Program-made: the position numbers and the translations under genes
The notes under the pieces: model-generated
Told to the model about the DNA's origin: nothing
The model's database searches: none
The model's input: the letters and a program-made list of their open reading frames with translations, nothing else
In this document: piece by piece, positions 39,831-43,602 of the stretch
Layout: every line of letters starts with the position of its first letter
Position numbering within the stretch: the stretch's first letter is position 1
Assembly (NCBI GenBank): GCA_024679065.1
Contig: JAGIQG010000019.1
Location: 31,992,001 to 32,056,000 of the forward strand
DNA from: Sphyrna mokarran
Taxonomy: Eukaryota
Length of the DNA: 64,000 nucleotides
Reading direction: 5' to 3'

Positions 39831-40737
39831 ATGTCAGGGTCCTTGAATAAATGCGTCCACTGTGTTCGTTGCCATATGTGGACATTCTTGGAGGCAGCAC
39901 GTCTCCCGAAAGCCCACATATGCACAAAGTGTTTAGAGTTGCAACGTTTGAGGGCTCGGGTGAGGCAGCTGGAACTGAGATTGGAAGATATGTTTTTAGT
40001 CAGAGAAAATGAGGGGATAATAAATAGGGACCATTGTCCTGAGGGGACCCCAGGGCCTAGTAGGAGGGATGGGTGGGTTACAGATAGGAAGTGGAAAAAG
40101 AAAAGGAGTCACGGCATTAAGAACACCTCAGAGGAGGCATCCCAGAATATCAAGGGTAGGGCAAAAGCTGAGGTAGAGAGGGCAAGGGAGGGGGATCAGA
40201 ATGCCCCGGAAGACGGCAGGAATGCGGGATGTGAGATAGTGGTGGGGGATGGGAAGGTCAAAGGGATCAACAGGCGATTCTGTGGGCAAATGCGGGACTC
40301 CAGGATGGTAGTCTGCCTCCCTGGAGCAGGGGTCCAGGATGTTTCAGAGAGGGTAGAGGGAATTTTGAAGGGTGGAGGGTCTAAGGCTGATGTAATAGTT
40401 CACGTAGGAGAGAAGGATGTAGGAACAAAGTGCAGGGGGGACATACGTAGGCAGTTCAGGGAGTTGGGGGCTCGGCTGAAGTGTAGGACCTCCAGGGTGG
40501 CATTCTCTGGGCTGCTGCCAATGCCCGGGGCTGATAAGGTTAGGAATAATGAGGTACTCCAACTAAATGCGTGGTTGAGATTGGTGTAGGGCAGAGGGTT
40601 TCAGATTCATAGACCATTGGGAAGTCTTCATGAGGGAGGGGCATCTATACAAGAGGGACGGGGAACAGTTGTCTGGGAAGGGCACCCATATTTTAGCTGG
40701 GAGGTTAGCTGGAGTGTTTCGGCAGGGTTTAAACTAA
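39831..40737 (+). pseudogene. CR1 ORF1: Cys zinc finger/leucine zipper plus SGNH-esterase-like domain; one frameshift near 40581
   Basis: CVRC...CTKC, LQRLRARVRQLELRL, VVCLPGAGVQDV; continues in another frame as WCRAEGFRFIDHW...RQGLN*. Confidence 0.88.
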
Positions 40738-43602
40738 TATGGAGGGGGGGTGGGGAGACAGAGGGAACTGGGAGTGGGAGAGAGATGGGTGACAGGGTAA
40801 GTCCAGAGGGTAGGAAGGAGGGTCAGAGAGGGCCTGAGAGTCCTCAGTGCATGTGTTTTAATGCGAGGAGTGTGACTGGCAAAACAGATGAACTGAAGGT
40901 AATAATGTTCACGAGGAAGTTAGAAGTGGTGGCGGTGACTGAGACGTGGTTAAAGGAGGGGCAGGACTGGCAATTGAATATTCCAGGGTATAAGTGTTTT
41001 AGGCATGACAGAGGTGGTTTGAAGAGAGGAGGGGGAGTGGCGTTATTAGTTAAGGATCACATCACAGCAGTGCAAAGGGAGGGTGGTATGGATGATTTAG
41101 GAATTGAGTTGCTATGGGTGCAGTTGAGGAATAGGAAGGGAGAGGTTACTATGTTGGGTGTGTACTACAGACCGCCCAACAGCCCGCGGGCCGTGGAAGA
41201 AGGGATATGCAGGGACATTTTAGATAAGTGTAAGGATAGGGTGGTTGTAGTGGGAGATTTCAATTTCCCTGGGGTAGACTGGAAGGTGCCCACAGCGGAT
41301 GGGGAGGAATTTGTACAGTGTGTTTTGGAAGGGTCCTTGGAGCAGTATGTGGATAGCCCGACTAGAGAGGGGGCTATACTGGATTTGGTTCTGGGGAATG
41401 AGCCAGGGCAGGTGGTTGACGTTGTAGTAGGAGAGCATGTGTCAAATAGTGACAACTCTGTCTGCTTTAGGATATTAATGGAAAAAGATGAAGCCTGCCT
41501 TAAGGGGAGGGTGTTAAACTGGGGGAGGGCTAGATACAGCCAGATTAGGCAGGATCTTAAGGATACCGACTGGGATAAGCTGTTCGAGGGTAGGTCGACG
41601 CTGTACATGTGGGAGTCTTTCAAGGGAAAACTAAAATTTTTGCAGGAAAGACACGTGCCGGTAAGGAGGAAGGATGGGAAAGGTAGGATTAGAGAACCGT
41701 GGGTTACTAGGGATATTGAGGACTTGGTCAGGAAGAAGCGGGAGGCGTACGTTAGATCTAGGCAACTGGGGACAGAGACAGCGCTGGAAGAATATAGAGA
41801 GTGTAGACAGGATCTTAAAAGGGGTGTCAGAAAGGCAAAAAGGGGCCACGAAATGGATTTGGCAGGTAGGATTAAGGAAAATCCTAAGGCATTTTACTCC
41901 TATGTAAGGAGCAAAAGGATGGTTAGAGGGAAGATTGGACCTCTCAGGGACAGAGGAGGGGAACTATGCTTAGAGCCTGAGGGAATGGGGGAGATCCTGA
42001 ATGAATACTTTGCGTCGGTATTCACGCGGGAGAGGGGCCTGATGTCTGGTGCCGGCTTTGAGGAATTTGAGGACCCGTTAAAGGAAATAATCATTATGAG
42101 GGAAGAGATGTTGGGGCTTTTAGGCAGCATAAAGACTTAGAAAGCTCCGGGGCCTGATGGCATTTACCCCAGGCTGCTAAGGGAGATGAGAGATGACATT
42201 GCTGGGTCTCTGACGCAAATCTTTGTCTCTTCTTTGGACATAGGTGAGGTCCCACAGGTGTAGTACCGTTGTTTAAAAAGGGTCAGAGGGATAACCCAGG
42301 GAACTATAGGCCGGTGAGCTTGACTTCAGTTATAGGTAAGCTAATGGAGAGGATCCTCAGGGACAGGATGTATGAGCATCTGGAGCGCTGTGATCTGATC
42401 AGGGATATGCAGCGTGGCTTCGTTAAGGGGAGGTCGTGCCTTACAAATCTAGTGGAATTTTTTGAAGAGGTGACAAAAACGGTTGATGAAGGACAAGCCG
42501 TTGATGTCGTCTACATGGATTTCAGTAAGGCATTTGACAAGGTTCCTCGTGGTAGGCTGATAGAAAAGGTGAAGGCGCATGGGATACAGGGCCAGGTATG
42601 TAGATGGGTTGAGAACTGGCTTGGGAGGAGGAGACAGCGGGTAGTAGTGGAAGGCTCATTTTCCAACTGGAGGTCTGTCACTAGTGGTGTGCCACAGGGC
42701 TCTGTACTAGGACCTCTTCTATTTGTGGTTTATATAAATGACTTGGAAGAGGGAGTAGGTGGTGTGATCAGCAAATTTGCTGATGACACTAAAATGCTTG
42801 GATTGGCGGGTACTGAGGAGTAGTGCCAGGCAATACAACAGGACATAGATAGGCTGGTAGACTGGACAGATAGATGGCAAATGGAATTTAATCCGGATAA
42901 ATGCGAGGTGATGCATTTTGGCCGGAATAATGTAGAGGGGAGTTATAGGATAAAAGGTAAAACTATCCGGAGTATAGAGACGCAGAGAGACCTGGGGTGC
43001 AGGTTCACAAGTCTCTGAAGGTGTCAGTACAGGTGGAGAAAGTGATAAAGAAAGTGTATGGTATGTTAGCCTTCATAGGAAGGGGTATAGAATACAAGAG
43101 TAGGAGTCTGATGTTACAAGTGTATAGAACGTTGGTTAGGCCTCACTTGGAGTACTGCATCCAGTTCTGGTCGCCGTACTACCAGAAGGATGTGAAGGCC
43201 CTGGAGAGAGTGCAGAGGAGATTTACCAGGATGCTGCCTGGTATGGAAGGGCTGTCTTATGAGGAAAGATTGAACACACTGGGGTTGTTTTCCCTTGAAA
43301 GATGTCGGCTGAGAGGGGATCTATTAGAGGTATATAAGATTATAAGGGGTATAGATAGAGTAAATGGTGGTAAGCTTTTTCCACCATTAGAAATGGATAG
43401 AACAAGGGGTCACGGGCTCAGGGTGAGGGGGGCTATGTATAAGACGAATATTAGAGGCCAGTTTTTCACACACAGGGTAGTGGGGGTGTGGAATGCACTG
43501 CCGAGTAAGGTGGTGGGAGCAGGCACGCTAGGGTTGTTTAAGGGTCTCTTGGACAGCCACATGAGCGGTCTGCAGATAGAAGGATATAGCAGGACTGTCT
43601 AA
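40728..43602 (+). pseudogene. CR1 ORF2 (APE endonuclease and reverse transcriptase) with stops at 42138 and 42821 plus indels
   Basis: [56 protein letters not shown]. Confidence 0.95.

Follow-up and report, generated by a model that had tools for sequence, protein, structure and literature searches.

In retroviral gag-pol genes and in the nidoviral ORF1a/1b pair, a phased heptamer of the form X_XXY_YYZ lies in the overlap between a structural and a polymerase open reading frame (ORF). U_UUA_AAC is among the shiftiest of these heptamers and a G_UU(A) form is used by equine arteritis virus (PMC5009743), while U_UUU_UUA followed by a stem-loop is the HIV-1 design. Here we describe a junction of the same layout in a CR1-type long interspersed nuclear element (LINE) of the hammerhead shark Sphyrna mokarran. 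The element lies in a stretch of 64,000 nucleotides (contig JAGIQG010000019.1, positions 31,992,001 to 32,056,000; hereafter the window, in whose numbering all coordinates are given and on whose forward strand all features lie). Unlike the retroviral and nidoviral systems, CR1 is a non-long-terminal-repeat (non-LTR) element without a protease, no pseudoknot or hairpin was found in its vertebrate members, and its frameshifting is a prediction.

Among non-LTR elements, the Dictyostelium TRE5-A and TRE3-A are likewise of the APE type, belong to another clade with another ORF1, and are stated in a review to need a -1 frameshift for ORF2 (PMC5911963). For Paramecium LINEs, a +1 shift or readthrough has been suggested (PMC5405496). 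L1 and SART1 share with CR1 a bicistronic RNA, a low ORF2 output and an AUG that is not always needed; at their junctions lies a spacer, or stop and start overlap, whereas in CR1 it is a conserved slippery site on which the two frames overlap. The literature treats the translation of LINE ORF2 as unsettled, and the worked cases favour reinitiation (PMC5009743, PMC3708506, PMC11485995). A close described element is the canonical CR1 with a type IV (esterase) ORF1, which has an SGNH ORF1, an APE endonuclease, a reverse transcriptase (RT), a length of ~4.5 kb and a short target-site duplication, as does the element in the window. The junction of the family to which this element belongs (hereafter the window family) matches, by eye, the CR1 rows published in PMC13343379, while its esterase, unlike the canonical one, lacks the catalytic residues.

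We found no report of CR1 frameshifting in the literature searched; the original descriptions of CR1 and TRE5-A lay outside it, and an earlier remark is possible. PMC5009743 discusses HeT-A, TART and L1, with no CR1 in its first 300,000 characters. The searched text of PMC13343379 does not contain the words 'frameshift', 'overlap' or 'translation', its searched supplement does not contain 'frameshift', and neither does the searched text of two further CR1 papers (PMC3905857, PMC4120745). What we propose is a known mechanism in an element class for which the literature searched does not describe it.

The junction between ORF1 and ORF2

We conclude that CR1 LINEs with an esterase ORF1 likely use programmed -1 frameshifting to produce their endonuclease/RT in the form of a fused ORF1-ORF2 protein, a reading to which we give a probability of roughly 0.8. 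The junction carries a phased slippery heptamer followed by an open, AUG-poor linker, and these features are conserved. Their conservation goes far beyond chance and is best explained by a -1 frameshift signal. The preliminary description of this locus had suggested a gag-pol-like fusion, and our checks of heptamer, linker and ATG support it at the level of sequence, with a signal that reaches wider than the window family and is retained in CR1 from sharks to birds.

ORF1 of the window element (39831..40737) is of the SGNH-esterase type and has its true end in GGT TTA AAC TAA, with the heptamer T_TTA_AAC (40728..40734) in the ORF1 phase and adjoining the stop TAA (40735..40737; TAA, TAG or TGA in relatives). 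Direct reading and the sister copies agree with the position and phase first proposed for it, and at least 299 codons are open in the GGT TTA AAC TAA frame in 6 of 30 sister copies. In the window copy itself a 2-nt deletion near 40578, not mentioned in the preliminary description, disrupts ORF1, as judged from the sister copies (403 vs 401 bases) and from relatives, which carry two extra letters behind 40578. Because of the resulting premature TAG (40587-40589), ribosomes translating this copy would terminate before they came to the heptamer. Around the heptamer, the -1 frame has no stop for 46 codons on the 5' side and for 470 codons on the 3' side, which takes it through the endonuclease. 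ORF2 (40728-43602) is broken here by stops and indels; in sister copy L208 it continues without a stop for 927 codons in the -1 frame, counted from the heptamer.

The 7-mer TTTAAAC alone is not rare (19 matches in the window on both strands), and it is its phase and place that exceed chance. At other ORF1 codons, canonical phased heptamers were counted in 27 of 10,849 and in 4 of 2,108 cases, or ~0.002 per codon. The junction shows three marks of a frameshift site, namely a phased canonical heptamer, a -1 ORF that is open from the heptamer and needs no start of its own (although the window family has an ATG), and conservation beyond protein coding.

In the -1 frame, a linker of 42 codons (40728..40853) connects the heptamer with the first endonuclease motif and is open in 25 of 28 family copies. 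Across 25 representatives, chosen for having the heptamer and an in-phase endonuclease motif, the linker is 33-103 codons long in the -1 frame, and its 1,577 codons contain 6 stops in this frame vs 102 and 252 in the other frames. All 6 fall in three decayed copies. Stops between the heptamer and a conserved ORF2 ATG had been named beforehand as evidence that would speak against frameshifting; the linker is instead open in 22 of the 25 representatives. Followed from the heptamer in the 5' direction, this frame runs into a stop after a median of 5 codons, and in none of the 25 does it contain a Met there. With the phase left free, the -1 linker proved open in 16 of 16 tested loci of other hosts, and in a second abundant family, which is AUG-less, it was open in 24 of 40 copies, 23 of these without a Met. 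The first Met of this AUG-less frame comes within the endonuclease, past its first motifs.

These data bear directly on termination-reinitiation as in L1 and SART1, by which ribosomes would restart in the -1 frame at an ATG or a non-AUG codon and the heptamer would be kept for some other role, for example as a reinitiation signal. SART1 uses a UAAUG overlap together with downstream structure (PMC3708506). The window family indeed has a well-placed rival start, an in-frame ATG (40785..40787) kept in 30 of 30 near-identical copies, and the preliminary description was right to point to it. In TGA families, moreover, the -1 frame has a CTG that overlaps the stop. Yet the ATG is specific to the window family: it is absent in 11 of the 25 representatives, whose linkers have no Met before the endonuclease, and one contig of a relative has a different letter at its T. 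The CTG, for its part, is missing from TAA and TAG families. Across lineages we observed neither a conserved AUG near the ORF1 stop nor a stop-start overlap of the kind expected for AUG-dependent reinitiation. Restarting independently of AUG, as for L1, would explain the missing AUG, but it predicts neither a phased X_XXY_YYZ motif nor a switch between two heptamer classes, nor heptamers 10-13 codons before the stop (L153 and L160, described below). We consider reinitiation, the main rival, unlikely.

Conservation within and beyond the hammerhead genome

Copies in the hammerhead genome were sampled by motifs outside the heptamer, with one ORF1 motif upstream (4,782 matches; 50 loci read) and two endonuclease motifs downstream (1,044 and 356 matches; 30 loci each). 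An ORF1-end profile lacking the last ten residues matched 113 of 140 own-genome loci, and the other 27 were dropped. Outside the window family, 85 copies were made up of 67 with TTTAAAC, 4 with TTTAAAT, 5 with GTTAAAC and 9 with another or a deleted sequence. After hand-merging into 18 lineages (L056, L070, L086, L091 and L095, with a deleted or degenerate junction, were not among them), the seven heptamer positions had modal frequencies of 0.94-1.00 vs a mean of 0.64 at 20 upstream third positions. Synonymous variation across copies, which the preliminary description had named as contrary evidence, is thus nearly lacking at the heptamer across lineages.

Codon usage was tabulated from 19 hand-picked, gap-free, related copies of different lineages, four of them chosen as deviants. 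All 19 copies have a T immediately before TTA, despite five different amino acids (G, A, H, D, T) at this place. The heptamer Leu is encoded by TTA in 17/18 vs 6/14, 1/18 and 2/17 at other conserved Leu columns, and the Gly preceding it by GGT in 10/10 vs 5/17, 3/17 and 1/13 at comparison columns.

ORF1 proteins point in the same direction. Among 159 protein matches, 105 had complete ORF1 ends, of which 77 were LN (64), GN (10) or KN (3), the dipeptides encoded by T_TTA_AAC, G_GGA_AAC and A_AAA_AAC; the query itself ends in LN. The residue before LN could not supply the T in 1 of 64 proteins vs 14.7% nearby. The intact window-family protein ends in GLN, as homologues do, and turtle ORF1 proteins terminate in ALN. 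The DNA behind the QGN and SKN protein ends was sought in viral contigs and not found, so that G_GGA_AAC and A_AAA_AAC are putative heptamers deduced from protein ends. A broad ORF1 alignment was too variable for a locus search, and its invariant last column was not used because the selection favoured proteins ending in N. Natural in-frame ORF1-ORF2 fusions, sought among longer proteins, gave 2 matches among 8,000 scored. A stingray gene model (P0170) reads ORF1 into the endonuclease and, as a gene model, is no proof of translation.

The predominance of LN ends might also reflect a constraint on the protein only, that is, a C-terminal Leu-Asn with codon bias as a by-product, and FKL coding can yield TTTAAACT elsewhere in ORF2 (PMC4316615). 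Given an xLN end, however, the expected joint codon choice is 0.011-0.031 per lineage, and in 7 elements the protein end is FLx and the heptamer T_TTT_TTA. Equally, ORF2 could be expressed from a spliced RNA or through transcriptional slippage. For splicing one could count CTAAT or CTGAT in some families, which resembles a branch point, but TAG families do not keep this resemblance and the tract that follows is rich in G. Moreover, no recurring joint across the junction appeared in the contigs of four sequencing runs, where three joints, each in a single contig, all lay downstream; the runs were used as assembled contigs only (best share 0.28) and cannot show expression or frameshifting. As for transcriptional slippage, T_TTA_AAC has no long homopolymer. 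Protein constraint, splicing and transcriptional slippage together appear highly improbable to us.

A scan for endonuclease motifs only returned at least 37 metagenome loci and 7 genome-contig loci of other hosts. An esterase-type ORF1 end was retained in 18 of them (by profile match, or by eye for L142, L148, L153 and L176), and the remaining 26 were cut before the junction, had a different ORF1 type or were unrelated. Among the matches listed, 17 of these 18 ends carry a canonical phased heptamer, 10 of them T_TTA_AAC and 7 T_TTT_TTA; its distance to the stop is 0-2 codons in 15 and 10 or 13 codons in two (L153, L160). The endonucleases of the other-host elements are 24-55% identical to that of the window family; a tree of endonuclease starts, unlabelled and with long branches from decayed copies, was used for depth only.

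The supplement of PMC13343379 was searched by motif, without a denominator, in the first 400 letters of each sequence. Its CR1 consensus rows gave 23 matches to TTTAAACTA, 17 of them in junction context by eye, and 7 to TTTAAACTG, 2 of them in junction context, while five synonymous variant strings had no junction match there. The row labels (AllMis, CroPor, PogVit, AquCat, LatCha, AmiCal, AldAff, CalMil, ScyCan, SquAca, HypSab, PriPec) can be read as crocodilians, a lizard, a frog, the coelacanth, the bowfin, a teleost, a chimaera, sharks and rays.

Other junction types were seen in the same scan. Four metagenome loci (L151, L158, L167, L173) are CR1-like with a non-esterase ORF1 (weak PHD matches in two), and in 4/4 an AUG-less ORF2 follows ORF1 in the same frame, with TGA and then C in between; this is a candidate design for stop-codon readthrough. 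In a third type (L146, L150), ORF1 ends 16 nt short of the endonuclease motif and ORF2 lies in the +1 frame, with no nearby AUG. Two animal-type CR1 elements (L179, L182) were found within two prokaryotic metagenome-assembled genome records, which likely reflects bin contamination.

Proposed mechanism, candidate stimulators and objections

If esterase-ORF1 CR1 elements use frameshifting, most ribosomes would terminate at the codon that follows the heptamer, yielding free ORF1p. A few percent would shift back by one base, on either U_UUA_AAC or U_UUU_UUA, and continue through the variable linker of 33-103 residues, giving ORF1p-linker-endonuclease-RT, and slippage would set a ratio like that of gag to gag-pol. 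In vertebrates the stimulator would likely be a G-run, acting as a quadruplex or a protein-binding site, perhaps together with slow termination at the adjacent stop; in distant, probably invertebrate elements, it may be a predicted hairpin 8-12 nt downstream.

The candidate in the window is a G-rich tract (G7, G4, G3, G3, G3; 40741..40778) that begins 6 nt past the heptamer, its G7 run starting at 40744. In sister copy L006 it has a G4Hunter score of 2.32 (top 0.1% of element windows), a predicted quadruplex and no hairpin. This arrangement resembles quadruplex reporters with the same heptamer, a 5-8 nt spacer and G-tracts, in which a quadruplex 6-8 nt past U_UUA_AAC gave up to ~7% shifting (PMC3919603). 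Those reporters are engineered constructs, whereas CR1 would be a natural use, with a four-tract pattern that is not universal. Natural quadruplex stimulators of frameshifting were 'not currently known' in 2016 (PMC5009743). Of the 21 vertebrate-type elements, 15 carry a G-run that ranks in the top 3% of the windows of the same element, a score taken as the best of 12 windows on a sense strand that is G-rich anyway. The proposal of a quadruplex stimulator is thus plausible for the window family, whose pattern is a textbook one, and does not carry over to the 12 of 21 vertebrate-type elements in which no quadruplex is predicted.

Other structures were considered for the window family and set aside. 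Its sequence downstream of the heptamer has no significant fold in the window (z 0.0 to 0.2), and a hairpin or pseudoknot was rejected as folding gave none. Long-range pairing of the G-tract was likewise rejected, its best energies (-36.6 and -35.7 kcal/mol) falling inside the control range of -22.9 to -38.0.

In the distant elements, a hairpin starting 8-12 nt past the heptamer is predicted in 7 of 10, or 8 of 11 with L179, at z -1.9 to -3.7. Hairpins of different groups have unrelated sequences. Within five related elements, 95.6% of cells of the 9-bp stem are paired and two pairs are changed on both sides. One may tentatively extend frameshifting to the whole esterase-ORF1 CR1 clade and its invertebrate relatives, a G-quadruplex or G-tract having replaced the hairpin as stimulator in vertebrates; we regard this broader proposal as rather doubtful. 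Were it true, it would provide a natural and conserved quadruplex as a frameshift stimulator.

Several observations weigh against frameshifting as proposed here. With regard to stimulators, none of 21 vertebrate-type elements has a hairpin with z below -1.2, a consistent pseudoknot or exceptional long-range partner was not found in these elements, and only 9 of the 21 have a predicted quadruplex. Among the distant hairpins, both two-sided changes come from L179 alone, with 14 of 500 shuffles as good, and the offset is mostly 11 nt, beyond the typical 5-8 nt (PMC3919603). With regard to conservation, 28 of the 105 complete ORF1 ends are other than LN, GN or KN, and L161 has an esterase-type end and no heptamer. 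Some upstream codons are as fixed as those of the heptamer (Phe TTT in 11/11), and the representatives were hand-picked and are related to one another. Older lineages of the hammerhead genome are mostly out of phase, with stops (in phase: 2/11 for F3, 1/10 for F9, none for F4 and F5). We also know of no LINE that encodes a protease. ORF1 functions have been argued to need production apart from ORF2 (PMC3708506), and L1 ORF2 is translated independently of AUG, perhaps by reinitiation (PMC11485995).

Further difficulties come from the window family itself. It keeps two in-frame ATGs in 25 of 25 open copies, the first 48 nt past the stop and the second at 40851-40853. In addition, a G_TTA_AAC subfamily has 217 exact matches (G000, L185-L204), and this form occurs in 10 of the first 100 window-family copies listed, the other 90 having T. 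Many small contigs with G_TTA_AAC share nearly the same offset, perhaps as one repeated unit. Within-family invariance (30/30 copies, or 90 T and 10 G and no further variant in the 100 listed) was not counted as evidence of selection, because the copies are 97-99% alike, with private changes at 0.25% of A/T sites.

It could be, then, that frameshifting is ancestral and that some lineages, such as the window family and the G_TTA_AAC subfamily, use reinitiation in addition to it or in its place, or depend on relatives that copy them in trans. The ATG fixed in the window family, the expansion of the G_TTA_AAC subfamily, the loss of esterase catalytic residues from the window-family ORF1 and the existence of ORF1-less CR1 variants (PMC13343379) would all fit such mixed use. 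On the other hand, the window family retains the exact heptamer, an open linker 5' of the ATG and the strongest G-tract, and G_UU(A) is a known functional heptamer variant (PMC5009743). We judge mixed use to be very unlikely.

Programmed -1 frameshifting, if it holds, would newly explain how elements of this kind produce the enzyme that copies them. In sharks, reptiles and birds, whose commonest retroelement is CR1, that enzyme would have an N-terminal membrane-binding esterase domain. Recoding would set the amount of the enzyme and expose that amount to host anti-frameshift factors, and any annotation that starts CR1 ORF2 at an internal Met would be wrong. It would also mean that a non-LTR element has converged with retroviral gag-pol.

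The window element and its surroundings

The window copy is a dead relic of the proposed frameshift-type CR1 design. It is a full-length copy of 4.5 kb (39535..44073), and in blastn sister copies L209 and L211 match 39544-44073 at ~96%. The genome holds 2,933 first-look candidates of its family, whose copies are 97-99% alike, which indicates a young family. The element combines an SGNH-fold ORF1 with the APE endonuclease domain (40902..41453; PF03372, E 5e-11) and a piece of the reverse transcriptase (42281..42790; PF00078, E 5.3e-28) of ORF2, as expected of a CR1 with an esterase ORF1. An intact sister ORF1 protein matches OSK/Lipase_GDSL_2, a profile of ORF1 relatives matches PDB 4c1b 'ORF1-encoded protein' (E 2.9e-33), and the closest named relatives of ORF1 come from a ray and a sawshark.

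The window-family esterase (40240-40680; L006, P0001, P0002) is without the catalytic set, having GDG for GDS, GEKD for GTND and DGEQL for DGLHL. The family expanded recently despite these losses, and its pseudo-esterase is comparable to the SGNH domain of Oskar.

Direct reading places the 6-bp target-site duplication AAGTCT at 39529..39534 (5' copy) and 44074..44079 (3' copy). It is flanked by the two halves of another short repeat (39500-39534, 44074-44130), which is presumably a SINE (short interspersed nuclear element), and the CR1 element appears to have inserted into it. The 3' untranslated region (43603..44073) is common to the sister copies. A segment within it (43606-44073) is also found free elsewhere at 74-91% identity and resembles a shark SINE; the LINE may have captured a SINE at its 3' end. 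Other truncated LINE pieces lie in the window at 21134-22348, 6227-6607, 35057-35254 and 52952-53494, and one of them is ~90-96% like the window family at the protein level.

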